Positions 4,151 to 63,206 of a DNA stretch of 64,000 nucleotides are shown here, one piece after another. Position 1 is the first letter of the stretch. The number at the start of each line of letters is the position of its first letter. The translations under genes were made by a program, and so were the position numbers. The notes beneath the pieces are model-generated. The model searched no databases. It saw nothing but the letters and a program-made list of their open reading frames with translations, and was not told where the DNA came from. The stretch comes from Chthoniobacterales bacterium. Lineage in GTDB: Bacteria; Verrucomicrobiota; Verrucomicrobiia; Chthoniobacterales; Chthoniobacteraceae. The stretch spans positions 256,001-320,000 of the forward strand of contig JBBQZX010000002.1 in the NCBI GenBank assembly GCA_038207335.1, read 5' to 3'.

Positions 4151-4166
4151 TTATTGGGGAGTCTAA

Positions 4167-4192: not shown

Positions 4193-4256
4193 GTTACAGC
4201 GGGGTCATCGGGGGCGTTAAAGCAATCACATTTCAGCAATCACGCAGCGCGAAAGA

Positions 4257-19477: not shown

Positions 19478-19512
19478 AAAAAAAGGCGCTGCCGGTTTCC
19501 CGACAGCGCCTT
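19478..19512 (-). terminator. Rho-independent terminator of rpsA
   Basis: Minus strand AAGGCGCTGTCGG-GAAA-CCGGCAGCGCC followed by a T run. Confidence 0.88.
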
Positions 19513-19539
19513 GTTGATTTGCGGGGCCTGAGTGGCCGG

Positions 19540-39629: not shown

Positions 39630-41192
<1,563 letters not shown>

Positions 41193-41378
41193 CGCGACGA
41201 AAACCACGAACGCACGATGAAAGACGTGGAAATACACGGCACTCAAAGGCCCGGCCTCATCCTCTCCCCTTCGTGCCCTCGTGACTTCGATGTTAAAGAA
41301 ATCGCGCGACCTGCGCAGCCACGATGACCCTCAAAAATCTCGCGCGCTTCACTTCAAATCTCTGTACTCCGGCCGGTC

Positions 41379-42440
41379 CTAAGGGCTCCCATTCGGCAAC
41401 ACTGGATTCGGCTTTTTCGCTGTAGCCGTTCCCGCCGCAGGTTTCGGTTTGGCCGCGCCTTTCGGGGGCGGTGGAGGCGGCATGATCCCCAAGAGATCCA
41501 GCGCGCCGACTGCCTCCAGAAAGCGCACGTTGCCCTCCGCATCCGGTGCTCCGTATCCGTCCACAATGCCGACGAGTTCCCCCGCATCGTTCACGAGCGG
41601 CATTCCCATGACATCGCGGATGGCAATCGGCGCCTCGAGCGCAACTGTGAACCATTCGCCGCTGCTAAAAACATTCTCCACCCGAGATGACGCAAATTCC
41701 TGGTCGATCTTGTCTTCGTGAATCGCCGCGCGCGCCAAACGCAAGTGATCGCCGACACTCGCGGGCAACAGCTGCGGCTTCAGCGGCGCGACCGGTGGCT
41801 GTTTCACATCGGCCGGCTTGAATTCAAGAAGCCATGTGAGCTGCCGACCAATGAGCCCCGGAGCGCGTGCGAGCCCGATAGCGGCCAGTTCCAAGCCCGG
41901 TTTTTCAGGCTGTGAAAAAGTCCACTTCAAGCACGGGAGCGCGTTCGAATTCGGGTCCAGAGCCATGCTCGCCGGCAGCGCGTGGACGACCGCATAAACC
42001 CCTTCCGGCGCGCGACAGAAGAACGCCGTCCCCGGCCGCACGCGCCCAGCCTTCAGCGTCGCTGCGCTTTTCACAAAAATCCGGCCGACGTCCTTCTGAA
42101 AGAGCGAAACCTTCGGGACCTCCAAGACTTTCGGACGCGTCGCCCACTTGATCAGCACGAATCCGCCGTAGAGCAATCCAAGGCCAAGGAGCAGCACCAC
42201 GCCCAGCCAGCCGAAGAGCGAAAGCTTCGGCGCCGCCGATTCGCCGATGCGATACCTGCTCAACAAGTGCTGGTTCGCTTTGCGAAATGCCTCGCTCTTC
42301 AGCTTGCCGTGACACGGGCAGCAGAGGTGCTCAGCGCCGTGCCGCACAGTCAAATGCTCCGGCCATTTTTGATTGCAAATGACGCACTCAAAAAAGGCGA
42401 CGTCGGGTTCTGTGTTCTGAGCCGGTTCCGCAGAGTTCAT
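41379..42440 (-). CDS. Hypothetical membrane protein (N-terminal Cys cluster, TM, degenerate trypsin-like domain)
   Basis: CVIC...CCPC; TM helix; GTAFF...GMPLVNDAGELVGIV without the GDSG catalytic motif. Confidence 0.65.
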   Translation of the reverse strand: MNSAEPAQNTEPDVAFFECVICNQKWPEHLTVRHGAEHLCCPCHGKLKSEAFRKANQHLLSRYRIGESAAPKLSLFGWLGVVLLLGLGLLYGGFVLIKWATRPKVLEVPKVSLFQKDVGRIFVKSAATLKAGRVRPGTAFFCRAPEGVYAVVHALPASMALDPNSNALPCLKWTFSQPEKPGLELAAIGLARAPGLIGRQLTWLLEFKPADVKQPPVAPLKPQLLPASVGDHLRLARAAIHEDKIDQEFASSRVENVFSSGEWFTVALEAPIAIRDVMGMPLVNDAGELVGIVDGYGAPDAEGNVRFLEAVGALDLLGIMPPPPPPKGAAKPKPAAGTATAKKPNPVLPNGSP

Positions 42441-43832: not shown

Positions 43833-46790
<2,958 letters not shown>

Positions 46791-46894: not shown

Positions 46895-47083
46895 GATCCC
46901 CGAGATCCGCACGGGGACCTTCGAGATCTGCACGGGGATTTCTAAAATCGGCACGAGGATCGTCTAAATCTGCGCGGGGATTTTTAAAATCGGCACGGGG
47001 ATCGTCGCAATCCGCACGCCGATCTTTAAAATCGGCACGAAGATTTTGTTAATCTTCGTGCCGATTACAAGAATCCTTGTGTA
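46895..47083 (+). repeat. Array of nine degenerate 21-bp tandem repeats (GAT-N7-ATC core)
   Basis: Units start at 46895, 46916, 46937, 46958, 46979, 47000, 47021, 47042 and 47063; example unit GATTTTTAAAATCGGCACGGG. Confidence 0.92.
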
Positions 47084-47166: not shown

Positions 47167-47190
47167 CTTCAACGCCGCACCCGTCGCCCG
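47167..47190 (+). repeat. 24-bp dispersed motif, copy 1
   Basis: CTTCAACGCCGCACCCGTCGCCCG; 23/24 identical to 57479-57502 on the minus strand. Confidence 0.9.
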
Positions 47191-47339
47191 CCCCGCCATT
47201 GAGAACAATGCGCACGCTTTCCCGCTCGCTTCGGGCAGTCCAATCGGAAGGCAGATGGGGGGAGATTTTGAAGCGAGTTTGGACGACGGCGCTGACGGAC
47301 TCGGTGGTGACGCATCACTGGGAGCCGTCGTGGCGGGGC

Positions 47340-47402: not shown

Positions 47403-47855
47403 TTGGACTTAAAAGATATCAAGGAGCTCATAGCTCTGATGAAAAAGAACGATCTCTCGGTCTTCAAAATGGAGAACGAGGGATTCAAAATTACGCTGAA
47501 GAAGGGGTGTGATTTTCAACCGCAAATCGTCGCCGCCGCTCCGCAACAATTCGCCCCGCCCGCCGCGCCCGCGGCAACTCCCGCCGGAGCGCCCGCCGCG
47601 GCGGCCGAGGCTGAGAAGCTGCGCGAGATCAGTTCGCCGATGGTCGGCACATTTTACGGTGCACCGTCGCCGGAGTCAGCGAGCTACGTGAGCCCGGGGC
47701 AGGAGGTGACGGAGGACACGGTGGTATGCATCATTGAGGCGATGAAGGTGATGAATGAGATCAAGGCCGAGTGCCGCGGAATCATCGCGGAGGTCGTCGC
47801 GGAGAGCGGAAAACCGGTGCAGTTCGGGCAAGCGCTGTTCCGGCTGAAGGCGTAA
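47403..47855 (+). CDS. accB: Biotin carboxyl carrier protein
   Basis: [20 protein letters not shown] start. Confidence 0.96.
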
Positions 47856-49223
47856 ATGTTCTCCAAAGTCCTGATCGCCAATCGCGGCGAAATCGCCCTG
47901 CGCGTGATCCGCGCGTGCAAGGAACTGGGGATCAAAACGCTGGCGGTTTATTCCGAGGCGGACGTGGATTCGCTGCATGTGCAGCTCGCGGATGAGGCGA
48001 TTTGCATCGGGCCGGCGCTGAGTTCGCAGAGCTATTTGAAGATCGACCGGATCATCAGCGCGGCGGAAATCGGCAATGTGGATGCGATCCATCCGGGCTA
48101 CGGATTCCTCTCCGAGAACGCCCACTTCGCGGATGTGTGCGCAAGCTGCAATATCAAATTCATCGGGCCGCCCGCCGACGCGATCCGCAAGATGGGCGAC
48201 AAAAATATCGCGCGCGCGACCGCGCGAAAAGCCGGAGTGCCCGTGACGCCCGGCAGCGACGGACTCGTCGAGACGGAGCAGGAGGCGCTGAAGGTCGCGA
48301 AGAAAATCGGATACCCGGTGATGATCAAAGCGGTCGCCGGCGGAGGAGGAAAAGGGATGCGCGCCGCGCACAACGACGTGTCGCTTGTGCAGGGTTTTCA
48401 CGGTGCGCGGATGGAGGCGGAGAAGGCATTCGGCAACGCGGGCGTCTATATCGAGAAGCTGATCGAGAACCCGCATCATGTGGAATTTCAAGTCATGGCC
48501 GACTCGCATGGCGATGTCGTCCACATCGGTGAGCGCGACTGCTCGATGCAGCGGCGCAATCAGAAGATAATCGAGGAAACACCGTCGCCACTGATGACCG
48601 AGGGCCTGCGGAAGAAGATGGGCGCGGCCTCGGTGAAGCTGGCGTCGTCGGTGGATTACATCGGTGCCGGAACGATGGAGTATCTCGTGGATGACCGCGG
48701 GAATTTCTACTTCATGGAGATGAACACGCGCATCCAGGTCGAGCACACGATCACCGAGGAGGCATACGGCATCGATCTCGTGAAAGAGCAACTCAAGGTC
48801 GCAGCAGGCGAATCGCTCTCAAATTTCGTCCGCAACGCGAAGCTCAAATACCACGCGATTGAGTGCCGTGTGAACGCCGAGGACCCGTTCAACAACTTCC
48901 AGCCGAGCCCCGGCAAGATCGACCTCTACTACGCGCCGGGCGGCCGCGGCATTCGCATCGACTCGCACGCCTACTCCGGCTACACGGTGCCGCCGCACTA
49001 CGACTCGATGATCGCGAAAATCATCGCCACCGGCACGACGCGAAACAATGCGATCGACCGGATGCGCCGCGCCCTCGGCGAATATCTCGTGCGCGGGATC
49101 AAGACCACGATCCCTTTTCAAGAGACGATCATGCGCGACCCGGATTTCATCCGCGGAAAGTACGACACGAGCTTTGTCGGAAAGCTCATCGAGTCCGGCG
49201 TCGCAAAGCTGCGCCACGGCTAA
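47856..49223 (+). CDS. accC: Biotin carboxylase
   Basis: [36 protein letters not shown]. Confidence 0.98.
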
Positions 49224-49237
49224 GCGTGAAGAGCGCC

Positions 49238-49810
49238 TTAGCGCTCCCAGCTCCAGTGAAACATGCTCTTGATCGCCTGCCGGCGGAGAGCAGCGAAGTC
49301 GTCCTTTTGCGCGGTGACTAGGAGCAGGAGCGAGTCGGATGGATAAAGATCGACGATCGAGATCGAGGTGGAAAAGCGGCTTGCCTGCGAGAGGTAGCTG
49401 AATTGCAACTCGCGGCTCGAGACATTGCGCAGCGAGAAGGGGCATGTGACTTCCTCGAGGTAGGTCACCTCCGTCGCATCGCTCGGCAGGAAGCTCTTCA
49501 CCCATTTCGTCAGGTCTTCGAAGTCCGGGGTGAGCGGAGGCGGTTGCGCGGCTTTGCGATCCACGAGTTCGAGATCGACGGCTGCCTGAGTCAGCTCCTG
49601 CGGGTATAGGGTGAGGTGCTTTCCTCCTCCGCTCATCTTCCACTCGGAGGGCGGCTGCCAGGCGACCTTCTCGGCACCATCGGTAAAGTTGACGACGGGA
49701 ACCGCTAACCCCTCGAGTTCACGAGTCCCTGAGATCGGGGTCAGATCAAGCGCGAGCAGCAGCGGGGCGGAGGCGATGCAAAAGAGGAAGGGTAGGACGA
49801 GACTTTTCAT
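49238..49810 (-). CDS. Secreted hypothetical protein
   Basis: Signal peptide MKSLVLPFLFCIASAPLLLA; starts 4 bp after the PilX-like gene ends. Confidence 0.72.
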   Translation of the reverse strand: MKSLVLPFLFCIASAPLLLALDLTPISGTRELEGLAVPVVNFTDGAEKVAWQPPSEWKMSGGGKHLTLYPQELTQAAVDLELVDRKAAQPPPLTPDFEDLTKWVKSFLPSDATEVTYLEEVTCPFSLRNVSSRELQFSYLSQASRFSTSISIVDLYPSDSLLLLVTAQKDDFAALRRQAIKSMFHWSWER

Positions 49811-49814
49811 GATT

Positions 49815-51773
49815 TCAGCGAAGCACCCAACGACCGCGCTCGTAAATCCGGGCAACGTGGAAGCCGGGTGGGTTGCGATCGGACAGGAGCGGATCGTAAT
49901 ACCAGTGGCGATCAGGCGCGCCGTAGCTGGCCGCACCCCACGGTTGAGTCGCCTCTTCGCTATCATAGAGAAGCGCTGTGGCACCGTAGATCGTGGCATA
50001 TTTTCCGGCCCACTTTTCGTGGAAACGGACAAAGTTCTCGATGCCACCGCTGTAGTTGCCACTGCCGGTGCGGGTGGGAACATTGCCCGCTACGATGGCC
50101 GTATTGATGGTCGTTGGAGTCGAGACACGGCTTGTGAGGGCCAAATCAGAATTCGCATCGTTCCATGCGTTGGAGAGAATGTTTACCGCGTCACCAACGA
50201 CGGAGGACGGGGGCCGGACGTAGGAACCCACGACCGGGCTTGGATTCGCGTTGTTATTGTAGCTGGAGGCAGTGTTTGAAGGGGGCTGCACAGTGTTGCT
50301 TCCGGTATTGTAGTCACCCGCGATGTAAACGCTATGCGGACTCACGACCGTGAAGCCCGCTGTGGGAAGAACTCCACCTTTCACCAGCTTGACACCGCGG
50401 GCTCCGCCACTGGTGACAGTTTTAACCAATGCACCTGTGGAAGAATTGACAATTTTCGTCTGGTTTCCGCTCGCTACAGTCGTGCCAGTGTTGCCGGAGC
50501 TGGTATCTTTGATATACAGGGTAATTCCGTCACCGCCGCCGACTCGGTCTTTGAGAGTCCCAGCGTCGGAAGAAGTTTTTACCGAGCTGACATCGAGGAC
50601 AACCAGCTTCACATAGTCGGCGTCTCGGACGTCTTTGATGGCTGTATTTGTCGTGATTGCTGCCTTGAGCGCAACATACTCTGCCGAAGTCGAGGCAAGC
50701 GGAGTAGCGGATGTCCCGGCGTAAATAGTGACACTGTTGTCTGCGGCCACTACGACGCGATAATCGGAGTTCGCGGATAGGCGTTCGCTGCCGGTTTGAT
50801 CGTCGTTCAAATAGGGATCAATTTGGAGAGGGTCAGTGCCGGTGGTGCCGCTCGTTACCTTTTCCTCAATGATTTCATGATAGCCATCATTGTTCTTGTT
50901 GCCGTCTGAGTCGGTGTCGTTCAGCGATGAATCATCCAAGAAGTTTGGGTCCATCAAGTTCGTACTCACGTCCAACAGCTTCTGTTCACTTCCACGATGC
51001 GGGGGATTATTGATGTCCCAGTTGTCGCCAAACCCGTTGGTTGGAATGGTAGGAGCGGTGCCTGGTCTGCGCGAGTCCGCGACGCGATAGTCCATCGTCT
51101 GAGTCCCCAAGAATGTAACGTCTTTCTGAAAATGGAGGAAGTCGTGGGCTGTGTATAGGTCACCTCCAATGTAAGCAGTTCCGCCGATATACATGGGAGC
51201 TCCGGGATGGAATTCGGTGACGGGTTGCGCTCCGAAGTAAAAGTTATCGAAAATACTACGACCGCTTCGGACGAAACTCCGCTTGATGGTGACCGTACTC
51301 ATCCCTCGCATCACCGGAAAATTGACTGCCACAGTGGCTACATAGTAAAGCCGTGTGCGCTGCGTCCAGTTCGTGCCGCTTTCCGCGGCGGGCCTCGCGC
51401 TCGGTGCGGTTAATTCGACAAGAAGGGGGGTCGCTGCCAGTACTGTTGGAGCCGATACGAGCGAAATGTTGGTCGGCGCCGCGATCACAGCAGTCGTGGG
51501 AGCACTGATCTTTGTAGCCAGTGCGCTGTTGGTTAACCCGTCCCGGCGATCCGTGGCGTCGGTCACGGAGATCATCGCTTGGCGCCACTGCTCATAAACC
51601 TGTTCGATCACGGCATCGCCGTATGCCAGCGCCTCGGCGCGATGCACCGTTCTTCCTGCCATTCGCGTGTTATTGGCTGTGACCGAGAGCATGATTGCCA
51701 CGAGGCTGCTCACGGCCGCCATGGTGAACATCACCGCGAGCAAGCTACTGCCGGATTGGGAGTTGTTTTTCAT
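49815..51773 (-). CDS. Large PilX/GspK-like minor pseudopilin
   Basis: MKNNSQSG|SSLLAVMFTMAAV (class III-like signal without Glu5); C-terminal NYSGGIENFVRFHEKW. Confidence 0.8.
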   Translation of the reverse strand: MKNNSQSGSSLLAVMFTMAAVSSLVAIMLSVTANNTRMAGRTVHRAEALAYGDAVIEQVYEQWRQAMISVTDATDRRDGLTNSALATKISAPTTAVIAAPTNISLVSAPTVLAATPLLVELTAPSARPAAESGTNWTQRTRLYYVATVAVNFPVMRGMSTVTIKRSFVRSGRSIFDNFYFGAQPVTEFHPGAPMYIGGTAYIGGDLYTAHDFLHFQKDVTFLGTQTMDYRVADSRRPGTAPTIPTNGFGDNWDINNPPHRGSEQKLLDVSTNLMDPNFLDDSSLNDTDSDGNKNNDGYHEIIEEKVTSGTTGTDPLQIDPYLNDDQTGSERLSANSDYRVVVAADNSVTIYAGTSATPLASTSAEYVALKAAITTNTAIKDVRDADYVKLVVLDVSSVKTSSDAGTLKDRVGGGDGITLYIKDTSSGNTGTTVASGNQTKIVNSSTGALVKTVTSGGARGVKLVKGGVLPTAGFTVVSPHSVYIAGDYNTGSNTVQPPSNTASSYNNNANPSPVVGSYVRPPSSVVGDAVNILSNAWNDANSDLALTSRVSTPTTINTAIVAGNVPTRTGSGNYSGGIENFVRFHEKWAGKYATIYGATALLYDSEEATQPWGAASYGAPDRHWYYDPLLSDRNPPGFHVARIYERGRWVLR

Positions 51774-52639
51774 TCGGTAAGATCGACAGGTGCGGGTTGT
51801 GTGCGGACTGAAATGACTGACTGCAAAGTTGTAGCTCCCCCTAGGAAACGCCTCGCCGTCCACTTCGAATCATAAAACTCAAGTGAAATCCTCATATCCA
51901 ACGATGGATCGGTGCCGATCAGTGCAAAGGGCTTCGGAGATGTGATCCCGGTGCGAACGATGGAGTAAGTGTTTTTTGCACCTCCCGTAAAATTCGGGTG
52001 GAAACGGAGTTCGTTGTTTTGAACAGAATAGGCCGCCTGCCGAAAGAAGTAGCCGGTAGTGATGTTGGTGGAGGTATTGCCAAAAGTGAAACCGAGCGGC
52101 GTGCTGACGGTGAAGCGTCCGTTCGGGCTGCCGCTGGTAGGCGTAGCATTGATGGCTGTAATGGTGAGCTTCGCGTCCACCAGAGGAACCCACACTTTGT
52201 CTCCGATCTGAGGGACGTAGGTCACCACTCCGTTCGGCGCAAAATTAAACGTCAGCGTTGTGGAACTCGGAGTCGTATTCGCGGTGAGTTGGAAGGGTCC
52301 ACCCGCAGTCCGCCAAAAACGGATTCCATTGGCTCGGTTGCTGATTTTTAGACCCGTGAGTGGATCGGTGTCTCCCGAAGTGCCGGCAAGAAAGTCGGTA
52401 TAGGTGCTGCCTGTGCAGGTTTGCAGCTTCACGGGGGATCCAGATGCGTGAATGGCCGCCATCATGCGCTGCTCCGCGCTCATCACCCCTTCATGACTGT
52501 GATTTGTGGCGAGGTTTTTTGCGATGAGCCTCGAAGAGGTCCATCCGAAGCTCAGCAGTGCGATCCCTAGAGTGGAAAATGCGGCTGTGGTCATGATCAG
52601 CTCCACCAAGGTGAATGCTGACTGGGATTTCGTTTTCAT
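51770..52639 (-). CDS. Prepilin-type N-terminal cleavage/methylation protein (PilW/GspJ-like)
   Basis: MKTKSQSA|FTLVELIMTT. Confidence 0.85.
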   Translation of the reverse strand: MKTKSQSAFTLVELIMTTAAFSTLGIALLSFGWTSSRLIAKNLATNHSHEGVMSAEQRMMAAIHASGSPVKLQTCTGSTYTDFLAGTSGDTDPLTGLKISNRANGIRFWRTAGGPFQLTANTTPSSTTLTFNFAPNGVVTYVPQIGDKVWVPLVDAKLTITAINATPTSGSPNGRFTVSTPLGFTFGNTSTNITTGYFFRQAAYSVQNNELRFHPNFTGGAKNTYSIVRTGITSPKPFALIGTDPSLDMRISLEFYDSKWTARRFLGGATTLQSVISVRTQPAPVDLTE

Positions 52640-52654
52640 CGGTGCGCGGCTGCT

Positions 52655-53140
52655 TCAGATGCTGTCGGTCACACGAAGCGTGCTAAGACTGACTGAGTAT
52701 GTCGTGCCGTGGTAAATGTAGGTCGTGGTCACAATCGCGCGTGCGGTGCGCGCATTGATTGCCGTGACGACGGTACGCCGAGTCGCCGCGACGGGGGCAT
52801 CGTACTCAGTCATAGGGCTCGAAAGACCGCTTTGCTTATTAAAAACGTCGTCGTTGAGGGTGAGGTTGTTGGTCTTCGTCCCTGCCGCGAGCACGGCGGG
52901 CAAGCCGGTGGACGTATTCCAAGCCGTCGTGAGAACCTCGTCGATGCGCTGCTGAGTGGCTGCGAGCGCGAGGGTGCGCAGGCGGGAGGAAAAGGCGTAG
53001 CGGTTGAGCTGCGTCATCGCCAGCAGGGAGCCGCAGATGAAAAAGGCGACGATGCTCGATGCGATGAGCAGCTCGACGAGCGTGAAGCCCGAGGCAGTCG
53101 ATTTTCGCAGATGAAACCCGGATCGCGGGAGAGCAGTCAT
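52655..53140 (-). CDS. Prepilin-type N-terminal cleavage/methylation protein (PilV/GspI-like)
   Basis: ASG|FTLVELLIASSIV. Confidence 0.87.
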   Translation of the reverse strand: MTALPRSGFHLRKSTASGFTLVELLIASSIVAFFICGSLLAMTQLNRYAFSSRLRTLALAATQQRIDEVLTTAWNTSTGLPAVLAAGTKTNNLTLNDDVFNKQSGLSSPMTEYDAPVAATRRTVVTAINARTARAIVTTTYIYHGTTYSVSLSTLRVTDSI

Positions 53141-53197
53141 AGCCGCTGTAAAGCAGCCGGCTTGCCAAGTTCGCGGGAACTTTGCCTGCGAGGATTG

Positions 53198-53947
53198 CTA
53201 CTTCACCGCGTCGCTCACTGCCGCGCCGGTGTATTCCCGGTTCATGCGCGAGATGACGCCGATCGGAATTTCCGCCGGACAGACCGCCTCGCATTCGTAG
53301 TGGTTCGAGCAGTTGCCAAAGCCTTCCTCATCCATCTTCCGCACCATTCGGAGCGCGCGCTCGTTGCGCTCAGGCTGGCCCTGCGGGAGGAGTGCGAGAT
53401 GTGAGATTTTTGCGCCGACGAATAGCATCGCGGAGGCGTTCGGGCACGCAGCTACGCACGCGCCGCACTGGATGCACGCGGCGGCTTCCATCGCCTCGTC
53501 GGCGGCCGTCTTGCCGATGAGGATCGCATTTGCATCCTGCGCGCCGCCGACCCGCGCCGTCACGAAGCCACCCGCCTGCTGCACGCGATCCATCGCCTTT
53601 CGATCGCAAACCAAGTCCCGCACCACAGGGAACGCCCGCGCGCGGAATGGCTCGATGAACACCGTCTCGCCGTCCTTGAAATTCCGCATGTAAAGCTGGC
53701 ACGTGGTGGTCGCACTCGTCCCATGCGGGATGCCGTTGATCGTCAGCGAGCACGTCCCGCAGATCCCCTCGCGGCAGTCGTGATCGAACGCAATCGGCGC
53801 CTCGCCTTTCGCCTCCAGCCCTTCATTCACAATGTCCAGCATCTCGAGAAACGACGCATCCGCGGGGATGTTGCGCGCTTCGTAATCGACGAGCGCCCCC
53901 TTGGCTTTCGCGTCTTTCTGACGCCAGACTTTCAGCTTCAGGTTCAT
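53198..53947 (-). CDS. sdhB: Succinate dehydrogenase/fumarate reductase Fe-S subunit
   Basis: [32 protein letters not shown]. Confidence 0.96.
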
Positions 53948-55864
53948 CTATTTGTAGCTCCGAGTCGCGAGGTGAATGTTGTCGAACTCCAGCGGCTCGA
54001 CGTGCCGCTCAGGCTTCACGCCGTCCCCCTTGAACTCCCACGCCGCGACGTGCGCGAACTCCTCATCGTTCCGCTTCGCTTCTCCGTCCGCTGTCTGGAA
54101 TTCCTCACGAAAATGCCCACCGCACGACTCCCGCCGCTCCAGTGCGTCCAAGCACATCAGCTCGCCGAACTCCAGGAAATCCGCGACCCGCCCCGCCTTC
54201 TCCAACGCCTGATTCAGCTCCTCGCCGCTGCCAGTCACGTTCACATTTTGCCAGAACTCCTCGCGCAACGTCGGGATGCGCTTTAGCGCCCGCTGCAACG
54301 ACTTCTCAGTCCGCCCCATCCCGCACAAATCCCACATCAGCAGCCCCAACTCCCGGTGAAACGAATCCACCGAGCGCCGCCCCTTGATCCCCAGCAGCCG
54401 CGCCGTCCGCGCCTTCACCTCGGCCTCTGCCTTCTGAAACTCCGCGTGATCCGCCGCCGGCCGCTTCCCGAGCTGATCCGCCAGATAATTCCCGATCGTG
54501 CTCGGCAGCACGAAATACCCGTCCGCCAGCCCTTGCATCAGTGCGCTCGCTCCGAGCCGATTCGCGCCGTGGTCGGAAAAATTCGCCTCTCCCAGCACGA
54601 ACATCCCCGGAATCGTGGACATCAAATCGTAATCCACCCACAGCCCGCCCATCGTGTAGTGCACCGCCGGGAAAATCCGCATCGGCGTGCGATACGCATT
54701 CTCCCCGGTGATCTGCTCGTACATCTCGAAAAGATTCCCGTACCGCTCCCGCACCACATCCTCGCCCAGCCGCTTGATCGCATCCGCAAAGTCCAGATAC
54801 ACCCCGAGCCCCGTTTCCCCCACGCCGCGCCCCTCATCGCACACCTGCTTCGCCGCGCGCGATGAAATATCCCGCGGCGCCAGATTCCCGTAGCTCGGAT
54901 ATTTCCGCTCCAAATAATAATCCCGCTCGCCCTCCGGAATCTCCCCCGGCGCCCGCTTGTCCCCCTTCTTCACCGGCGCCCACACCCGCCCGTCATTCCG
55001 CAACGACTCGCTCATCAGGGTCAGCTTGCTCTGGTAGTCACCCGTCACCGGGATGCACGTCGGGTGAATCTGCGTGTAGCACGGGTTCGCGAACATCGCT
55101 CCCTTCTTGTAGGCCCGCCACGTCGCCGTCACGTTGCACCCCTTCGCGTTGGTGGAAAGATAGAACACATTCCCATACCCACCCGTCGCGAGGATCACGC
55201 AGTCCCCAGCGTGCGAGCTGATCTCCCCCGACACCAAGTCCCGCACCACAATCCCCTTCGCGTGCCCGTCCACGAGCACCACATCCAGCATCTCCGTCCG
55301 CGGATACATCGTCACTGACCCGCGTGCGATCTCCTTGTTCAGCGAAGAGTAAGCCCCCAGCAAAAGCTGCTGCCCCGTCTGACCCCGTGCGTAGAAAGTC
55401 CGCGACACCTGCGCCCCGCCGAACGACCGATTCGCCAGCAGCCCACCGTATTCCCGCGCAAACGGCACACCCTGCGCCACACACTGGTCGATGATATTCG
55501 CGCTCACCTCCGCCAACCGATACACATTCGCCTCCCGCGACCGGAAATCCCCGCCCTTCACCGTGTCGTAAAACAGCCGGAACACCGAGTCCCCGTCATT
55601 TTGGTAGTTCTTCGCCGCATTGATCCCCCCCTGCGCCGCGATCGAGTGCGCCCGCCGCGGCGAGTCTTGGTAGCAGAAGCACTTCACCTTGAACCCCAGT
55701 TCCCCCAGCGTCGCCGCCGCCGCCGCCCCTGCGAGTCCCGAGCCCACCACTATGATCTCATACTTCCGTTTGTTCGCCGGATTGATCAGCTTCGACTCAA
55801 ACTTATATTTCTCCCACTTCGTCTCCAGCGGGCCGTCCGGAATCTTGGAATTGAGAGCGCTCAT
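53948..55864 (-). CDS. sdhA: Succinate dehydrogenase/fumarate reductase flavoprotein
   Basis: [32 protein letters not shown]; start MSALNSK at 55864. Confidence 0.97.
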
Positions 55865-56568
55865 TGAGAAATCGTCGCAAAATTGATCCAACCCATCCAC
55901 ACCGCCAGCGGCACAGACACAAAACCCGCAAAAATCACCCAAGCCAGCACGCGACCTCCCACCCGCAGCGGCCCCAGCGTCTTCCGCGAAGTCAGCCCCA
56001 GCGTCTGCAGCAGCGACGAAAACCCGTGGCTCAAGTGCAGCGCCAGCAAAAACAGCCCCAGCACATAAAATCCCGTCACCACCGGATGCCCGCGGAACCC
56101 CCGAATCACCATCGAATGCACATCATACTCCGTCGCCAGCGTCCCCCCCTCCGACACTGCCCGCAGCGCCGGATCCACCGTCCGCGTCGTGAAATGCAGA
56201 ACATGAAAGACCACAAATCCTAGCACGATTAGCCCCGACACTGCCATCAACCTCGACGCCCACCCCGCCTCCCGGTAGGTCCGCGTCGCATACCCCTCCG
56301 GTCGCGCCGCCCGATTCTGCACCACGAGCGCGATCGTCACCCCGATGTGAGTTAAAAAGCACGCGATCAGGAACACCCGCACCACCCATAGCACGCGCGG
56401 CATCGAGTGGAGGAAAACGGCGTACCCATTGATCTGCTTCGGCTGCGAAAAGATCTGCAAATTCCCCGCCATGTGCCCGATCACATAAGCCACCAGCACG
56501 ATCCCCGTCAGAGCCACCACCCATTTCTTGCCGATCGAAGAAGAGAAAAACGCGGAGATGGGATTCAC
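55861..56568 (-). CDS. sdhC: Succinate dehydrogenase cytochrome b subunit
   Basis: [28 protein letters not shown]; five TM helices. The start is GTG 56568 or TTG 56583. Confidence 0.93.
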
Positions 56569-56729
56569 GAGAAAGAGCCGCAAAATTTACCGAGCCTCAG
56601 CCTCTTGAAAAGCACGAAATTGCCCCGGCCTCAAACTTCCTGCGCTCCGCGTTTTAGAGGGGAAGCGCGGGGAACCTCTTCCCGGAAGCAGTCACCGCGA
56701 CGCTCGACTCCGGTCGCGGCAAGGCGTGG

Positions 56730-57203
56730 TCAAGGAGTTTGGTCTTGGAGTTGGTAGAAGACATCGGTGCGGATTTTTGATGGGTCGGTGTTCCAGCTTT
56801 CGTCCCAGTGGCCATAGACTTCCCATGAGATGCCCGTGAGGAGATGTCCGTGCTTGGCGCACCAGTGGCGAAGACTGGTGTGGGCTTCGGAGAGTCGTTG
56901 GTAGGGGCCGAGGTGGACGGTGGTGGCGACGCGCCCCGCGGGCAACTGAGAGCAATGGATGCGGTCGTTGCCGGTAAAGGGTGCGAATACCTCGGCACCG
57001 ACCTCGACCGAACCTTGGGCGTCCAGATACAAAGCGATATGGCGGCCTGGCTTTGGCAGGCCAGCGGAGCGGGCGAATGCCCAGACTTCGCCGCACGCTG
57101 CGGGGACAAATCTCGAAAGCTCTCGGGGATGCACGCGGTCACGCACTACGGCCGTAAGCGTCACTTCTGAGTTCGTTATCGTCCGGGGTTGTTGCGTAGT
57201 CAT
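56730..57203 (-). CDS. GyrI-like small-molecule-binding protein
   Basis: LPAGRVATTVHLGPYQRL...SWEVYGHW...RTDVFY. Confidence 0.85.
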   Translation of the reverse strand: MTTQQPRTITNSEVTLTAVVRDRVHPRELSRFVPAACGEVWAFARSAGLPKPGRHIALYLDAQGSVEVGAEVFAPFTGNDRIHCSQLPAGRVATTVHLGPYQRLSEAHTSLRHWCAKHGHLLTGISWEVYGHWDESWNTDPSKIRTDVFYQLQDQTP

Positions 57204-57412
57204 TCTCGTGGTCTGCGTGCGATTCCAAAGGCTAGGAAAAGAACTACGAATGCGCCAGCGGAGACTGCGGCTCTGGCCCATGTGGAAGTAAGCTCGTAGC
57301 GGAGGGACATGAGCGATGCGAATAAAATGATGCCGATGACGACCGGCCAGACTCGCCGGGTGCTTTTGCTAGCCTGTGGTGATGGGGATGAGGTGTGCGT
57401 AGGTGTAATTAT
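57200..57412 (-). pseudogene. Small two-TM protein lacking a canonical start (ATA at 57412)
   Basis: Open frame ...RRVWPVVIGIILFASLMSLRYELTSTWARAAVSAGAFVVLFLAFGIARRPRE*; its stop overlaps the GyrI ATG (ATGA). Confidence 0.55.
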
Positions 57413-57478
57413 GAGGGAAGCTGCCTAGCGTGAAGACGACTGCGACGGTGGACGGGGGGAGGTGGAGGGTCGCTGGGT

Positions 57479-57502
57479 CGGGTGACGGGTGCGGCGTTGA
57501 AG
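57479..57502 (-). repeat. 24-bp dispersed motif, copy 2
   Basis: Minus strand CTTCAACGCCGCACCCGTCACCCG. Confidence 0.9.
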
Positions 57503-57569
57503 AGAAGGTGGCGATTTTGGAAAGTTGGGGGGAGTTTACAGAGAGGTTTTGGGGTGTGGTTATTTATCC

Positions 57570-57758
57570 GAAGTTTTCATGAGTGCCCCGGAAGTTCTTC
57601 CGCGGGCCTCGTGAGTTCTCATAGTTGCCCCGGAAGTTCTTTCGCAGCGGTCATGCATTTTCATGATGGCCCCGGAAGTTCTTCCGCAGGAGTCGTGCAT
57701 TTTCACGATGGCCCCGGAGCAGTCTCCCCGGGGTTTGAGAGTTCTAGGAGAAGCGGGG
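57570..57758. repeat. Array of about nine 21-bp units with alternating A/B (42-bp) higher-order period
   Basis: For example TGCATTTTCATGATGGCCCCG / GAAGTTCTTCCGCAGGAGTCG, repeated in exact 21-bp phase. Confidence 0.9.
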
Positions 57759-57890
57759 GCAGGAATCGTTGAGCGCGTCATAATAGTTGGAGCGGCGGCG
57801 ATTACTGTGAAGGGCCGGGTATTTGTTTGTTGAGCAGCAACACGTTTAATCGCTCACACTTCTTAGCTCTTAGCCATCGGATATCAGCTA

Positions 57891-59045
57891 TCAGCCGAGT
57901 GCTTCGGCTAAGATGGCGACGGTGCGGTCTAGCTCGGCTTCGGTGTTGTAGAAGTGGGGGCTGAGGCGGAGGTAGTCGCGGCCTTCGCGGTCGTGGCGCA
58001 GGGAGGCGTAGATGTTGGCCTTTTCTAATATGCCGAAGAGTTCGGTGGAGCTGGCGGTGTCGTGGCGGAAGGTGGTGGTGCTGTGGGCGGCGGGGCCGCT
58101 GCGGGGGCCGAGGACGCGAAATCCGAGCGGGTCGAGGGCGCGGAGGAGGTGCGATTTTAACTCCCAAAGACGGGCGGCGATGGGCTCGATGCCGTGGCTG
58201 GCGATGAGGCGGAGGGCGGCGGTCATGCCGTAGATACCGGCGATGTTGAGGACGCCGGGCTCGTAACGCTGGGCGGTGGGGACGAAGTGGATTTCGTCTT
58301 GGGTCTGGAATTGGGGGGAGCGGACGTTCCATGCGCCGAGGAGGGTGGGGCGGAGGAGGTCGAAGTGGTCTTTTTTGACGAAGACGATGCCGATGGCCAT
58401 GGGGCCGAGCATCCATTTGTGGGCGTCGGCGCTGAGGAAATCGACGTGCTGGACGGAGAGCGGGAAGGCGCCGAGGGTCTGGATGGCGTCGAGGGAGAAG
58501 AGGACGCCGTGGGAGTGGAGGAGGGCGCCGATGGAGTCGATATCGATGCGGTATCCGGTAAAGAAGTGGGCGCTGGCGAGGGCGACGAGGCGGGTGCGAG
58601 GGGTGAGGGCGGCGGCGATGAGGTCGGGGGTGATGGCGCCGGGTTGGTCGGGCTGGAGGTAGCGGACGGTGACGCCGCGGCGGCGGAGGTCGAGCCACGG
58701 ATAGACGTTGGCGGGGTAGTCGCCGTGGTAGCAGAGGAGTTCGTCGCCGGACAGCCAGGGGATGCCATTGGCGATGAGGCTGAGGCCGAGGGAGGTGGGG
58801 CCGAGGAGGGCGATTTCGTCGGGGTCGGCGCCGATGAATGTGGCGCATGTCTTGCGGGCCTGGAGGATGTCGCGGAGGACGCGGTCGAACTCCTGGGGGC
58901 CCTCGGCGGACTGGCGGGTGTAGTCGCAGATGGCGTCGGCGACGATGCGCGGGAGAGGGCAGACGCCGGCGTGTGCGAGGAAGATTTTGTCGCGGGCGAC
59001 GGGGAATTGGCGGAGGCGCTCGGCTTCGTCGGGGAAGAGGGTCAT
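57891..59045 (-). CDS. Class V PLP aminotransferase (cysteine desulfurase/lyase-like)
   Basis: DAIQTLG, SADAHKWMLGP, RYEPG, RLSPHFYNT. Confidence 0.92.
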   Translation of the reverse strand: MTLFPDEAERLRQFPVARDKIFLAHAGVCPLPRIVADAICDYTRQSAEGPQEFDRVLRDILQARKTCATFIGADPDEIALLGPTSLGLSLIANGIPWLSGDELLCYHGDYPANVYPWLDLRRRGVTVRYLQPDQPGAITPDLIAAALTPRTRLVALASAHFFTGYRIDIDSIGALLHSHGVLFSLDAIQTLGAFPLSVQHVDFLSADAHKWMLGPMAIGIVFVKKDHFDLLRPTLLGAWNVRSPQFQTQDEIHFVPTAQRYEPGVLNIAGIYGMTAALRLIASHGIEPIAARLWELKSHLLRALDPLGFRVLGPRSGPAAHSTTTFRHDTASSTELFGILEKANIYASLRHDREGRDYLRLSPHFYNTEAELDRTVAILAEALG

Positions 59046-59281
59046 GGCTCGGGATCGCTGTGTGGAGGCCGGTCGGTGAGCTTTGTGGTGACGGTGAAGT
59101 CGCGCTCGGTGAGGGTCTCGCCGGTTTTTTCGTCGGTGAAAGTCTGCGCGGCGGCGGAGAAGTTGGGCTTCGGCGGGAGGGGGATTTCCGGCGGGGTGCG
59201 GAAGCGGGCGATCAGCATGACGAGGCCGATGAATGTGGTGAAGATGCCCATCGCGATGCAGAAGAGCAGGCGGAGGTTCAT
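59042..59281 (-). CDS. Small single-TM hypothetical protein
   Basis: ATGA overlaps with both neighbours; N-terminal TM helix. Confidence 0.7.
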   Translation of the reverse strand: MNLRLLFCIAMGIFTTFIGLVMLIARFRTPPEIPLPPKPNFSAAAQTFTDEKTGETLTERDFTVTTKLTDRPPHSDPEP

Positions 59282-59646
59282 CCGCTTTTCTTCGTCTGCT
59301 GCGCCTCCTCGATCAGCTTCCAGAAACCGCCCTGCTGACCAAGTTGCTCATCCTCTGCGGGCATCGGAAGCTTCGCACGGAAGAGGAAGTCGCGGATGGT
59401 GTTTTTATGCAGCACGCGGTGGATGGTGATGCCCTCGGGTGAGCGCGCGAAGTAGATGCGGTAGTCCTTTGCGCGGTAGCGGTGGAGCTTTTGACCGTCG
59501 CGCTCGATGAGTCCGAATTTCTCGTCGTCGAGCTTGTCCAAGTCTTCCGGCAGGACCTCGAACTCCATGAGCAGGTCGAGCTGGAGTTCTTTGGGGAGCG
59601 CGGCCATTTCGGCGGCGCTGATGGCGTTGAAGACGATCTGGAACAT
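59278..59646 (-). CDS. RelE/ParE-fold-like protein
   Basis: MFQIVFN...LHRYRAKDYRIYF...ITIHRVLH. Confidence 0.7.
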   Translation of the reverse strand: MFQIVFNAISAAEMAALPKELQLDLLMEFEVLPEDLDKLDDEKFGLIERDGQKLHRYRAKDYRIYFARSPEGITIHRVLHKNTIRDFLFRAKLPMPAEDEQLGQQGGFWKLIEEAQQTKKSG

Positions 59647-59683
59647 TTGCTCGGGAATAGAGCGCGGGCGCGGCGGCGGCGCG

Positions 59684-59770
59684 AGTTTTCAGTTTGCAGT
59701 GTGCGGTTTTCAGTATTCAGAAAACGCCGCACGCCGACCCAAAGCTGAAACTGAAAACTGGATACTGAAC
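59684..59770. repeat. Inverted heptamer-repeat element between divergent genes
   Basis: (GTTTTCA)-like units on the left and (CTGAAAA)-like units on the right. Confidence 0.7.
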
Positions 59771-59774
59771 TCCG

Positions 59775-60767
59775 ATGACTTGGTTTAATTTCAGCTTTCA
59801 AGATTTCGCTGTGGCCTTTCTCAGCGTGCTGTTCGAGGGCATTCCCTACCTGCTGCTCGGCTCGCTCATTTCGGGACTCGTGGATGTTTTCGTATCGTCC
59901 GAACGGCTCACGAGTCTGCTGCCGAAGCGGCCCGCGTCGGCGATTTTTTTGAGCGGGTTGCTCGGGATTATTTTCCCAATGTGCGAGTGCGGAAGCGTCA
60001 TCGTGATCCGGCGCTTTTTGAAAAAGGGACTGCCGCTTTCCTGCGCAACGACTTACATGCTCGCCGCGCCGATCGTGGGACCGATTGTGGCGCTGAGCAC
60101 CTGGCAGGCATTCAGCCAGAGCGCGAATCCGGGGCCGCTACTGATGGTCTCCCTGCGGCTCGGGATCGGGTATCTCATCGCGGTCACGGTGGGCTTCATC
60201 GTGCAGAATATCTCGGCGGATCGCATCCTGCAGCCAGGCGTGATCGCGACGCGGAAGCGCGGCGGGCTGAGCATCGCAAGCGCGCCGACGACACAGGATT
60301 TCAGCGAACTCGCGGCGGAGGCGAGCGTGCCGCGCAAGCTGCTGATGGCGGTGCAATCGGCGACGTCCGATTTTCTCGACGTCGGTTTTTACTTCATCAT
60401 CGGCACGGCGATCACCTGCGTTTTCAACACCGGCATCCGGCAGGAAGTGCTCTCGATTTTCACCACGACTCCGCTGCTGGCGATCGTCGCGCTCATGGTG
60501 CTCGCCGCGCTGCTCGCGCTGTGCAGCACGACGGATGCGTTCGTGGCGTGGACCTTCACGGCGTTCCCGGCATCGGCCAAACTGGCGTTCCTCGTATTCG
60601 GACCGCTGTTCGACCTGAAGCTTTTCTGGCTCTACAGCCTCATCTTTCAGAAGCGCTTCGTCGCCGCGCTCGCGCTCGGGATTTTTGTCGTCGTGGCGAT
60701 TATTTGCTGGCGGCTGGATGCGTTGCAGATTCTCGGTCCGTCCGCTACTTTGCCCACATCGCCATGA
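59775..60767 (+). CDS. DUF318/UPF0718 permease
   Basis: FPMCECG, MLAAPIV, ALCSTTDAF, GPLFDLK. Confidence 0.9.
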   Translation: MTWFNFSFQDFAVAFLSVLFEGIPYLLLGSLISGLVDVFVSSERLTSLLPKRPASAIFLSGLLGIIFPMCECGSVIVIRRFLKKGLPLSCATTYMLAAPIVGPIVALSTWQAFSQSANPGPLLMVSLRLGIGYLIAVTVGFIVQNISADRILQPGVIATRKRGGLSIASAPTTQDFSELAAEASVPRKLLMAVQSATSDFLDVGFYFIIGTAITCVFNTGIRQEVLSIFTTTPLLAIVALMVLAALLALCSTTDAFVAWTFTAFPASAKLAFLVFGPLFDLKLFWLYSLIFQKRFVAALALGIFVVVAIICWRLDALQILGPSATLPTSP

Positions 60768-61615
60768 GTAAAATTTTCTCCCGCTGGCTTCCCTGCGCCA
60801 CGCTCGCGACTTGGAGCGCGATCCTGCTCTACTTCTTTTTCAGCGGACGCATCCACTCGCTCCTCGCGCCGCCCTTTCGGCCGTGGGTGCTGGCCGCGGG
60901 GCTCGTGCTCGGTCTCATGTCCGCGACGTTTCTTTTCGCGCCCGCCGATGCGTCGTGCTGCGCGGCGGCGGATTGCGGGCCGACGCTCGCGCGGCTGCCG
61001 ATCGGAAAAGTGCTGACCTTTGTGACGCTGCTCCTGCCGGTCGTCGCTGCGGCGTTCGTGTCGCCGGATTCGTTTGGGAAAGCGGCGATCGAAAACCGCG
61101 GAATCGACACGACCGGCGCGGTGCTCCCGGCTCGCACGGTGTCCACTTTTACTCCGCCAGAGATGCCGCTGCCGACAAAAGACGGCTCCCCTGCCCCGGC
61201 GCCCGCTGCTGCCGAGCCTGCGTCGCCCGTCGATTACCTCCAGCGCTCGCCGGATGGGAACATCGTGGCAGAGGTGCTCGACCTGCTCTACGCGGCGCAG
61301 GACGAGGGGTTGCGGAAAGATTTCGAGGGGAAAAAGGTGGAGCTCGTCGGGCAACTCATGCCGGATAAATCGGGCGGCGCGAATGGCGTGCCGCGGTTCA
61401 AGGCAGTGCGGATGTTCATGACGTGCTGCGCCGCCGACGCACGTCCGGTCGCGACCTTGGTGGAGACCGACAAGCTGCCCGAACTACCGGAAATGACGTG
61501 GGTGAAGATCACGGGCGTCTCGACTTTCCCAATGGAAAAAGGAAAACGCACCGCCGTTCTCCAAGCCGAACGCGTGGAAAAAACCGCGCCGCCCGACGAG
61601 GCGATGCTGTTTTAG
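60764..61615 (+). CDS. TIGR03943/DUF1980 (YcgQ-like) membrane partner of the permease
   Basis: RMFMTCCAADARPV; three N-terminal TM helices; ATGA overlap. Confidence 0.85.
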   Translation: MSKIFSRWLPCATLATWSAILLYFFFSGRIHSLLAPPFRPWVLAAGLVLGLMSATFLFAPADASCCAAADCGPTLARLPIGKVLTFVTLLLPVVAAAFVSPDSFGKAAIENRGIDTTGAVLPARTVSTFTPPEMPLPTKDGSPAPAPAAAEPASPVDYLQRSPDGNIVAEVLDLLYAAQDEGLRKDFEGKKVELVGQLMPDKSGGANGVPRFKAVRMFMTCCAADARPVATLVETDKLPELPEMTWVKITGVSTFPMEKGKRTAVLQAERVEKTAPPDEAMLF

Positions 61616-62343
61616 AGCGGCTGAAGCAGCGCTTGTTGCTGCGCCTCGAGGAGGTCGGTGATGCCGCTTTTTCCGAGCGTGAGCATGGCGGCGAGTTGGT
61701 CTTCGGTGAAGGTGGTTTCTTCACCGGAGCCTTGCAGTTCGACGAGCTGTCCGTCGGCGGTCATCACAAGATTCATGTCCACGGCGGCGTCTTTGTCCTC
61801 GATGTAATTGAGATCGAGCAACGCCTCGCCCGCGACGATTCCGACGCTCACGGCGGCGACGAATTTCATGATCGGGTTGCGCTTGATGAGCTTGGCCTCG
61901 AGCAACTCCTGAAACGCCAGCGCCGCCGCGACGCACGCGCCGGTGATGGACGCCGTGCGCGTGCCGCCGTCGGCCTGAAGCACGTCGCAGTCGATGCAAA
62001 GCGTGCGCGGGCCGAGCGCGTCAAGATCGATCACGGCGCGCAACGAACGCCCGATGAGGCGCTGGATTTCCACGCTGCGGCCGTCGAGCCGGCCTTTGGA
62101 AATGTCGCGTGGCTTCCTCTGCAAAGTGGAGTATGGGAGCATGGAATACTCCGCGGTGATCCAGCCGCCGGCGACTTTCTGTTCCTTCATCCAGCGTGGG
62201 ACTTGTTCCTCGATCATGGCGCTGCAAATGACGCGGGTGTCGCCGAAGCAGACGAGCACGGAGCCGGTCGAGTGCGGGGCGAAATCGCGGACGAAGGAGA
62301 TGGGGCGGAGTTGGTCGGGCGTGCGGCCGTCGTGGCGGGTCAT
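61612..62343 (-). CDS. rph: Ribonuclease PH
   Basis: RHDGRTPDQLRP, GWITAEYSMLP, EIQRLIGRSLR, QADGGTRTASITG. Confidence 0.97.
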   Translation of the reverse strand: MTRHDGRTPDQLRPISFVRDFAPHSTGSVLVCFGDTRVICSAMIEEQVPRWMKEQKVAGGWITAEYSMLPYSTLQRKPRDISKGRLDGRSVEIQRLIGRSLRAVIDLDALGPRTLCIDCDVLQADGGTRTASITGACVAAALAFQELLEAKLIKRNPIMKFVAAVSVGIVAGEALLDLNYIEDKDAAVDMNLVMTADGQLVELQGSGEETTFTEDQLAAMLTLGKSGITDLLEAQQQALLQPL

Positions 62344-62537
62344 GGGGCGCGGAACGTAGAAGCGACTTCGTGCAGATTCCAGTAAGTATTCTTCAAGCGT
62401 AGAAGCGATCGGCAGAAACCCGAGTGCGACATCGACAGGAGCGGGCGGAATGGCGTGGGCTCTCAGCCGCCCATCACCGCAAAATATGCTTGCAACTTCA
62501 CCTCCACACATTAATTCTCCGGATTCCCTATCGACAA

Positions 62538-63206
62538 ATGAACTCTGACGAAATCGAGACCGCAAACGCTGAACTTCTCAAAAAATCCCCGCTCGAAATC
62601 GTGCGCTGGGCGATCGACCAGGCCGACGGGCGCGCGATCGTTTCGACGAATTTTCGACCTTATGAAGCTGTGATTTTACACCTCGCCACGCAGGCGCTGC
62701 CGGAAATCCCGGTGCTGTGGATCGACCACGGCTACAACAAACCGGCGACCTACACGCATGCCGAGGAACTGAAGAAGCTGCTCGGGCTGAACATCAAACC
62801 CTTCGTCCCGCGCATGACTGCGGCGCATTACGACGCGATCCACGGCGGCGCGCCGGAGCCGACGCCGGAGAATGAGGAGCGCATCAAGGCCTTTAGCACC
62901 GTGATGAAGCTGGAGCCGTTTCAGCGTGGGATGCGCGAACTCGCACCGACCGTGTGGATCACAGCGCTGCGGAAAGTGCAGAATCCGAACCGCGCCGGCC
63001 TCGACATCGTGAGCGCGGACGCCAATTTCGGGAGCTTGAAAATCAGCCCCGTCTTTCACTGGAATGACAAACAGATGCACGAATATTGCGAAGCGCACGG
63101 CCTGCCGAACGAATGGGATTATTTCGATCCAGCGAAGGCGGATGAGAAGCGCGAGTGCGGCCTGCACGCGACTTGGGGCGGCGAAGCGGTGAGCGCGACG
63201 CGATGA
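62538..63206 (+). CDS. cysH: PAPS/APS reductase
   Basis: STNF, WIDHGY, KLEPF, KRECGLH. Confidence 0.9.
   Translation: MNSDEIETANAELLKKSPLEIVRWAIDQADGRAIVSTNFRPYEAVILHLATQALPEIPVLWIDHGYNKPATYTHAEELKKLLGLNIKPFVPRMTAAHYDAIHGGAPEPTPENEERIKAFSTVMKLEPFQRGMRELAPTVWITALRKVQNPNRAGLDIVSADANFGSLKISPVFHWNDKQMHEYCEAHGLPNEWDYFDPAKADEKRECGLHATWGGEAVSATR

Follow-up and report, generated by a model that had tools for sequence, protein, structure and literature searches.

Why should neighbouring genes, read from the same strand of a bacterial chromosome, make opposite choices between G and C at their silent sites? This question is raised by a 64,000-nucleotide window of a Chthoniobacterales genome (G000:C2:256001-320000; the genome comprises 5.17 Mb in 53 contigs and is 94.7% complete), in which sdhC and a class-V aminotransferase gene flank an abrupt switch, here called site 2, from C-rich to G-rich sequence on the plus strand. 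Site 2 consists of two back-to-back and largely independent arms, that is, one-way tracts of skew that leave a junction with the away (outward) strand G-rich and the toward strand C-rich, and such arms form a local, lineage-specific class that is anchored between genes and independent of gene direction. Skew was measured as G versus C at four-fold degenerate sites with the coding-strand mean subtracted (the residual; genome baseline on the coding strand, 0.457 G/(G+C)), using 3,787 genes called by a self-trained gene model, whose starts and small genes are approximate. The step across a gene boundary, D, is the skew in the 1 kb to the right of the gap minus that in the 1 kb to its left. In window coordinates, and with four-fold counts on the coding strand, site 2 reads as follows.

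53198..53947, minus strand: sdhB (Fe-S subunit), tail of the left arm, four-fold 68 G:45 C
53500..56648, minus strand: left arm, with the outward (minus) strand G-rich
53948..55864, minus strand: sdhA flavoprotein, four-fold 258 G:40 C
55861..56583, minus strand: sdhC, b558 family (TIGR02046), four-fold 117 G:13 C
56600..56700, no strand: switch point (cumulative G minus C lowest at 56,648), coinciding with a break in gene order in comparison with G005, a related genome
56730..57281, minus strand: inserted GyrI-like gene (PF06445), four-fold 19 G:55 C
57400..63000, plus strand: right arm, with the outward (plus) strand G-rich, spanning genes on both strands
57464..57502, plus strand: copy of an oriented element of about 35 bp, pointing into the right arm
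57574..57718, plus strand: 42-bp (2x21) tandem array of 3.5 copies, 3' of the element
57891..59045, minus strand: class-V aminotransferase, cysteine-desulfurase-like, under every NCBIfam cut-off, four-fold 7 G:203 C

The initial annotation of this DNA had described the switch from raw base counts (28 C and 9 G at 56101-56160; 27 G and 11 C at 58501-58560), which proved exact. It had also placed all genes on the minus strand, which holds for every gene from sdhB to the open reading frame at 59,278, and had contrasted G-ending codons in sdhA and sdhC with C-ending codons in the aminotransferase. This contrast is near its limit at four-fold sites, where G makes up 87-90% of G+C in sdhA/sdhC and 3% in the aminotransferase (binomial p versus the genome baseline: sdhC 2e-26, sdhA 6e-49, aminotransferase 3e-44), and the resulting step is the largest among 3,415 scored boundaries (D=1.73). 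On the plus strand the residual lies between -0.78 and -0.93 over 54,000-56,500 and reaches about 0 by 53,000, while on the other side it holds at +0.80 to +0.85 over 57,500-59,000 and then at +0.2 to +0.5 to about 63,000. Of the two landmarks against which the switch was to be located, insert and motif, it falls at the left edge of the insert (56,648); the motif within the element lies about 820 bp further to the right. Element and array head the right arm alone, no element copy having been found at the head of the sdh arm. The GyrI-like gene leans the same way as the right arm while being only partly skewed and is thus likely to be a recent arrival; it was not found in 10/10 other members of the genus at E<=1e-15. 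The element region gave no plasmid match, and a search of Rfam gave only sub-threshold matches to plant or animal microRNAs.

Could an ordinary cause account for this pattern? An assembly chimera, raised as a concern at the outset, is rejected by the read-derived contigs of run X1, possibly the source sample (those of a second run, X2, cover too little to be of use): a single X1 contig covers 55,058-63,000 with 0 differences at a depth of 15, and depth is even, at 15.9-22, across the switch. A codon preference belonging to the genes themselves was likewise rejected, as the orthologues of both are unbiased. Across 29 other sdhA loci the skew is never above +0.24, compared with +0.73 in G000; congeners lie at about -0.2 and the closest of them (G005, 91% identity) at -0.22. 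Three of the 29 lie at -0.86 to -0.95, and two of these three are skewed across neighbouring genes on either strand. For the aminotransferase, called in 76/80 loci, the median is -0.10, and the 2 loci at or below -0.8 both belong to genomes with contig-wide skew.

A third ordinary cause, a segment of one replichore turned around, has a genuine rearrangement in its favour, which links site 2 to a second switch in the window, site 1. The features concerned are these.

45000..46790, minus strand: site 1 arm, covering secA in its 3' half (coding plus strand, 35 G:185 C)
46905..47065, minus strand: 21/42-bp array of site 1, 3' of the element; architecture as at site 2, repeat sequence unrelated
47167..47205, minus strand: element copy of site 1, pointing outward into the secA arm
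47403..56583, no strand: block of accB, accC, variable genes and sdhBAC, inverted relative to the aminotransferase in comparison with G005; its ends are sites 1 and 2
62399..62437, plus strand: third element copy, with weak downstream skew only (+0.2)

Five relatives have accB-accC immediately after the aminotransferase or separated from it by one gene, and in G005 sdhBAC follow accB-accC in the opposite orientation, implying that the block from accB to sdhC is inverted in G000. The genome also has a weak replichore skew (contig skew versus strand share, rho 0.48). However, an inverted replichore segment would give one up-switch and one down-switch and is rejected, since both ends of the block switch upwards and decay. 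The rule that a strand reading towards the site is C-rich and one reading away is G-rich is common to both sites, as had been claimed, and at both the order is element, then array, then arm. Taking these causes together with a gradient along operons, considered below, we regard an ordinary explanation as very improbable.

Site 2 proved to be one of many. Of the 1,812 boundaries whose gap exceeds 60 bp, strong C-to-G switches (D>0.8) make up 95 and equally strong switches the other way (D<-0.8) make up 5, and the 95 occur in every gene arrangement (tandem 51, convergent 26, divergent 18). With the contig-wide baseline skew in G000 only within about +/-0.18, this bears out the view that the switches are centred on sites rather than being chromosome-wide. 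A position-free scan found 258 up-jumps and 148 down-jumps; 69% of the former lie within 100 bp of a gap, compared with 16% of the latter and 7% of random positions, so that down-jumps are mostly arm tails. The up-jumps comprise 107 left-only, 108 right-only and 43 two-sided cases, site 2 among the last. Averaged over 136 flanks in steps of 500 bp (the first of which was subject to selection), skew decays as 0.81, 0.73, 0.58, 0.47, 0.36, 0.27, 0.18 and 0.11, an e-fold length of about 2 kb, and is about zero by about 4-5 kb.

The initial annotation had left a gradient within transcription units as a possibility, which the genome-wide data reject. Ordinary divergent boundaries have D of 0.06-0.10 and tight convergent ones -0.12; long genes outside hot sites are free of a gradient at the 5' end, and at the 3' end their skew is just -0.16 to -0.08; and the one-sided arms (n=153) divide into 81 in which the sense strand points away and 72 in which it points toward the junction. 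These figures bear equally on an account based on R-loops, in which untranslated outward transcripts would hybridise to the template, the exposed away strand would lose C, and the resulting G-rich RNA would escape Rho and form more R-loops. A kilobase-scale decay would suit termination, arms lie upstream of tRNA genes (upstream in 11/45, downstream in 4/45), and Rho-controlled antisense R-loops reportedly exist in E. coli. Nevertheless, the 81 sense-away arms lie in translated genes, ordinary divergent promoters are nearly without a switch, no sigma-70-like promoter was found at site 2, and G000 has two Rho paralogues as well as RNase HI, all of which makes this account improbable. The Rho paralogues (G000:C1:66302-67531 and C18:44465-45553) are paired in nearly all of 31 genomes across the order.

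The substitutions themselves are strongly polar. In flanks selected on skew, four-fold sites of the away strand are 0.73 G and 0.15 C, with 0.84 G in NNR codons (background 0.61) and 0.46 C in NNY codons (0.67). The toward strand is 0.82 C and 0.09 G, A and T being nearly equal, and arms contain less A+T at their four-fold sites (0.09-0.125 versus 0.16). No trinucleotide preference of the deaminase kind was seen, the context effect being slight. With every other codon used to class the windows and the rest to measure them, the cross-validated memory of the ancestral state at four-fold sites was 0.10-0.15 in arms versus 0.36 elsewhere, with amino-acid identity unchanged (0.80-0.83 versus 0.81). 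A branch fit to G000 and G005 (2,217 arm sites, 21,136 neutral sites) gave away-strand rates relative to neutral of x8.2 [7.5-9.1] for C>G, x0.1 [0.0-0.2] for G>C, x4.3 [2.6-8.2] for A>G and x1.5 [0.5-2.7] for C>T. Silent turnover in arms is thus accelerated and dominated by C-to-G change on the outward strand. Because one direction is raised and its reverse lowered, the pattern looks like a fixation bias, largest for the pair of alleles that forms C:C and G:G mismatches.

A fixation bias could in principle reflect selection, either for C-rich, G-poor RNA running into the junction, as in Rho loading, or for a protein-bound G-rich outward strand. RNA rich in C and poor in G has a rut-like composition, and the toward strand, with C up, G down and A close to T, shares this composition with Rho utilisation tracts; the rate pattern and the mild 3' C enrichment away from hot sites point in the same direction. 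Unlike such tracts, the arms are not confined to untranslated ends, the C-rich strand being coding in 72 and antisense in 81. Selection would also have to confer opposite benefits on sense and antisense arms, to accommodate gain and loss between congeners, and to saturate nearly all silent sites over 2-3 kb or, in relatives G017 and G004, over 9-57 kb across operons. We consider it quite improbable.

If arms are local, where do they begin? A comparison with G005 over 460 kb and 252 orthologues places them at changes in gene order, with D>0.8 at 0/135 conserved junctions and at 11/158 synteny edges (p=0.0011), an edge class that includes neighbours lying merely outside the sampled DNA; for gaps >100 bp the figures are 0/35 and 10/83 (p=0.032). 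Repeat-rich gaps are enriched for arm starts. A single universal cis motif was rejected, since k-mer searches gave nothing beyond the 35-bp element, and hairpins, terminator-like sites and 7-mer repeats showed no excess over gap-matched controls. Two repeat families were seen in such gaps. One (G000:C1:1428-1599, 18 gaps), which we take to resemble integron attC sites, has an arm on its upstream side (-0.38); the other (G000:C22:72,175-72,250, 13 gaps) consists of GTAG-ended inverted doublets, presumably REPIN-like, with arms on both sides and D>0.8 in 9/13.

Among the repeats, one is directional, namely the element found at sites 1 and 2. It is about 35 bp long with sharp ends, contains a core dyad taken by eye from the copies (AACGYC-N5-GRCRTT), and is present in 84 copies at >=16 bits, 56 of them intergenic. 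Skew around these 56 averages +0.41 on the downstream side and -0.11 on the upstream side; it is positive downstream at 48, exceeding 0.4 at 31 and falling below -0.4 at 3. The element is also lineage-specific, its 19-nt core occurring 22 times in G000 as against 0-2 times in any of 40 relatives, and a 25-nt pattern having no match in metagenome contigs or 262 loci; in 3/3 testable cases the G005 orthologue lacks the arm. Yet it marks only about 4-5% of 275 arms, leaving about 95% without it, and its score does not correlate with arm strength (rho -0.01). A 21/42-bp array follows 11/56 copies and precedes 1/56, D>0.6 is seen at 53-62% of the gaps that contain such arrays versus 11% overall, and an element-plus-array copy related to that of site 2 lies on contig C24. 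The element may be a cause of arms, or it may insert, in fixed orientation, where arms already start.

Being short, repeated, oriented and lineage-specific, the element resembles several known classes of sequence: DNA uptake sequences, REP/REPIN, the oriIS of IS91, and Chi/KOPS. It differs from each. DNA uptake sequences typically number hundreds to thousands of copies, for which 84 are too few. It is not a stable palindrome as REP/REPIN would be (z -0.57 at site 2, +0.64 at the third copy and -3.1 at site 1 with flanks); candidates for the RAYT-type transposase that accompanies REP/REPIN are 3 Y1_Tnp matches in G000. The Y2 transposase (PF04986) of an IS91/ISCR rolling-circle end has no match in G000, at 94.7% completeness. 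Finally, it is not co-oriented with replichores like Chi/KOPS, the far-field skew being positive at 24/56 copies (mean -0.012). Some copies sit in coding DNA without an indel, as in the four higher-scoring ones with alignable homologues, most coding copies having no homologue among the loci. Elsewhere in G000, gaps hold unrelated 21/42-bp arrays (for example C1:308,484, C5:53,431, C13:79,836 and C22:42,333), which by eye look like decayed heptad-coding repeats; two adjoin genes for proteins of about 210-220 aa with an N-terminal D[FY]IP motif.

Relatives, of which 17-455 kb were examined per genome, show arms at other places or none at all, and arms have been gained and lost between congeners. 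Boundaries with D>0.6 and D<-0.6 number 15:1 of 198 in G005, 4:1 of 69 in G017, 2:1 of 135 in G004 and 1:0 of 32 in G007, with neither kind among the 61, 37 and 29 boundaries of G006, G014 and G012; in 80 named loci, which may overlap the same genomes, the ratio is 15:1 of 531. Longer tracts occur in G004, G017 and G007, up to a plateau of 57 kb. In cultured Chthoniobacter flavus Ellin428 (locus L184), a switch from -0.63 to +0.34 falls across a 3.3-kb stretch without gene calls, within the 12 kb seen. In genomes G031 and G032 the base signature of the arms extends over whole contigs, jumps are few, and the coding strands of ribosomal-protein genes are G-rich. Loci L200 and L204, from these two verrucomicrobial genomes, have four-fold skews of up to +/-0.9, unusually strong at 55-60% GC. 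At L262 (G017:C6:1-20000) the rplB operon is coded on the C-rich strand, with the opposite strand at +0.5 to +1.0, contrary to the leading-strand expectation.

How, then, do arms arise? The reading we favour, with a probability of roughly 40%, is strand-polar biased gene conversion at intergenic junctions. When homologous DNA enters, the strand that pairs would usually be the one with its 3' end facing the junction, and mismatch repair would reject donor G alleles (G:G) while passing donor C alleles (C:C), so that the donor strand would grow C-rich and the away strand G-rich. Since it is the donor strand that becomes C-rich, its 3' end would have to point at the junction. The ingredients have precedents: passages of PMC3167615 and PMC5416779 describe E. 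coli mismatch repair as correcting C:C very poorly and G:G most efficiently, part of PMC5512693 has RecA driving branch migration toward the invading 3' end, and in a section of PMC3375284 pneumococcal transformation tracts are exponential with a mean of 2.3 kb, to which the arm decay length is close, in agreement with conversion. A close known parallel is marker-specific mismatch repair in transformation and recombineering, where, in the same portions of PMC3375284, PMC3167615 and PMC5416779, C:C escapes, G:G is corrected and tracts run to about 2 kb. The organism would have to recombine often, donor strands would have to be polarised at junctions (by fragments ending at the element, or by homology ending at a break), and the host MutS would have to share the C:C blind spot. 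Also in favour of conversion are the sharp intergenic onset of arms, their concentration at synteny edges, the C>G-dominated rates of fixation-bias type, the weak ancestral memory at silent sites beside unchanged amino-acid identity, the lower A+T, the lack of a deaminase-like context and the excess of arms upstream of tRNA genes. ComEC, DprA, MutS, RecBCD and RecG are all present in G000; with recC-recB-recD passing their cut-offs, loss of repair genes was rejected as the cause.

Several points weigh against conversion. Genes for uptake and repair (ComEC in 30/31 genomes, MutS in 29/31) occur equally in flat and skewed relatives, and neither they nor Rho (31/31), a second dnaE or Y-family polymerases sort the two groups by eye. 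No recombination or polymorphism was observed in the contigs of the two runs. The contig-wide occurrence of the same signature in G031/G032 is more simply a replication effect, and the composition alone also fits asymmetric loss of C combined with a force restoring GC. The rate fit is rough, resting on two genomes near saturation with no outgroup and an ancestor assumed stationary. None of the 19 junctions at which G005 carries additional genes is hot, a rank test on gaps >100 bp is non-significant (p=0.17), and arms do not pair around accessory DNA (left-right 36, left-left 42, right-left 34, right-right 38). From the literature, a part of PMC3375284 reports pneumococcal mismatch repair to be saturated by divergent donors, with no genome-wide effect, and a part of PMC5512693 has RadA extending D-loops in both directions.

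The main rival is local, outward, error-prone synthesis. Displacement or repair synthesis would be started within the gap, at a nick or primer site such as a mobile-element scar, and would run one way for a few kilobases; its mutations, of a leading-strand type, would be only partly removed by repair, much as if there were hundreds of mini-origins that abort. The polarity of the arms equals that of an origin, and the skew that runs contig-wide in G031/G032, G004 and G017 has the same signature. According to 10.1101/346874, E. coli defective in mismatch repair shows transitions twice as often when the lagging-strand template carries the A and the C, a spectrum that the raised A>G and slightly raised C>T of the arms match. 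The oriented element, its mostly positive downstream skew and the missing G005 arms fit as well, and the leading-strand identity and the orientation are explained more simply than by conversion. On the other side, it is the C>G transversion that rises most, while G>C falls, and such synthesis explains this dominance less well; extra deamination would be expected to raise A+T, yet arms have less; and G000 has no IS91-type Y2 transposase match, no excess of hairpins and, at about 95% of arms, no copy of the element. We judge this account unlikely, though a serious competitor to conversion, and a cause other than all those considered to be improbable to a greater degree. The pattern is solid, and conversion and synthesis are the two leading models for its mechanism.

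The window holds further skewed stretches and neighbours of the two sites. guaB (IMPDH; 39,630-41,192, plus strand) forms a strong one-sided arm (14 G:280 C), and the gap at about 41,200-41,380 where it ends contains no copy of the 35-bp element. At 19,326-19,540 a convergent junction switches from -0.6 to +0.5, and a G-rich arm enters the window from C2:255,300, just before base 1. The block between accC and sdhB (49,238-53,140) is variable: it includes a gene of the N-methyl pilin type, its third positions are richer in A+T, and G005 carries different genes in its place. Upstream of the aminotransferase, a conserved open reading frame of 122 aa (59,278-59,646, minus strand) has no Pfam or NCBIfam match; we take it to have a RelE-like look. 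Degenerate 7-bp tandem repeats mark gene ends at 57,857-57,900, 59,687-59,772 and 4,166-4,193.

Set against described asymmetries, the arms share with the GC-skew switch at oriC (as covered in part of PMC7111523) their polarity and the base signature of the relatives' leading strand; they differ in occupying hundreds of sites, in being mostly one-sided (43/258 two-sided) and decaying, and in being several times stronger than the G000 replichore skew, and dnaA is present in a single copy on a contig other than that of the window. Human CpG islands, as described in PMC2817419, likewise present many dispersed asymmetries of origin polarity, discussed in terms of replication, transcription and biased conversion, but these are eukaryotic and long-range, whereas arms are kilobase-scale, near-saturating, dominated by C/G exchange and placed at intergenic rearrangement junctions. 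We found no report of dispersed, kilobase-scale, one-way skew tracts in bacteria, or of a strand-polar conversion footprint, in open-licence PMC and bioRxiv. Classical GC-biased gene conversion is strand-symmetric and runs from AT to GC; the arms behave like biased conversion in their kinetics, and their slightly higher G+C may be a further likeness, but they differ in their strand polarity (C>G x8, G>C x0.1).

What would this mean for these bacteria? Strand skew in bacteria is usually taken to reflect a single origin together with transcription. The arms are a third, local and much stronger source, overriding both and resetting the codon usage of core genes. It is conceivable, at somewhat short of even odds, that in Chthoniobacterales genomes hundreds of intergenic junctions act as unidirectional 'skew emitters', some marked by a lineage-specific 35-bp entry or priming signal with its array, which rewrite the synonymous codons of adjacent core genes within the lifetime of a species by a process tied neither to oriC nor to transcription. 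If so, a skew profile would be a fossil map, at base-pair resolution, of the sites and direction of DNA entry or resynthesis, and arm length would give the tract length of each lineage. Polar conversion would amount to strand-specific biased gene conversion, so that the debated contribution of conversion to base composition in bacteria could be tested on single genomes; local synthesis would mean hundreds of priming sites independent of oriC. Either way, the arms mislead skew-based origin calls, assembly checks and estimates of codon bias and synonymous divergence (dS) in the group, and the switch in cultured C. flavus Ellin428 suggests that a laboratory handle on them may exist.

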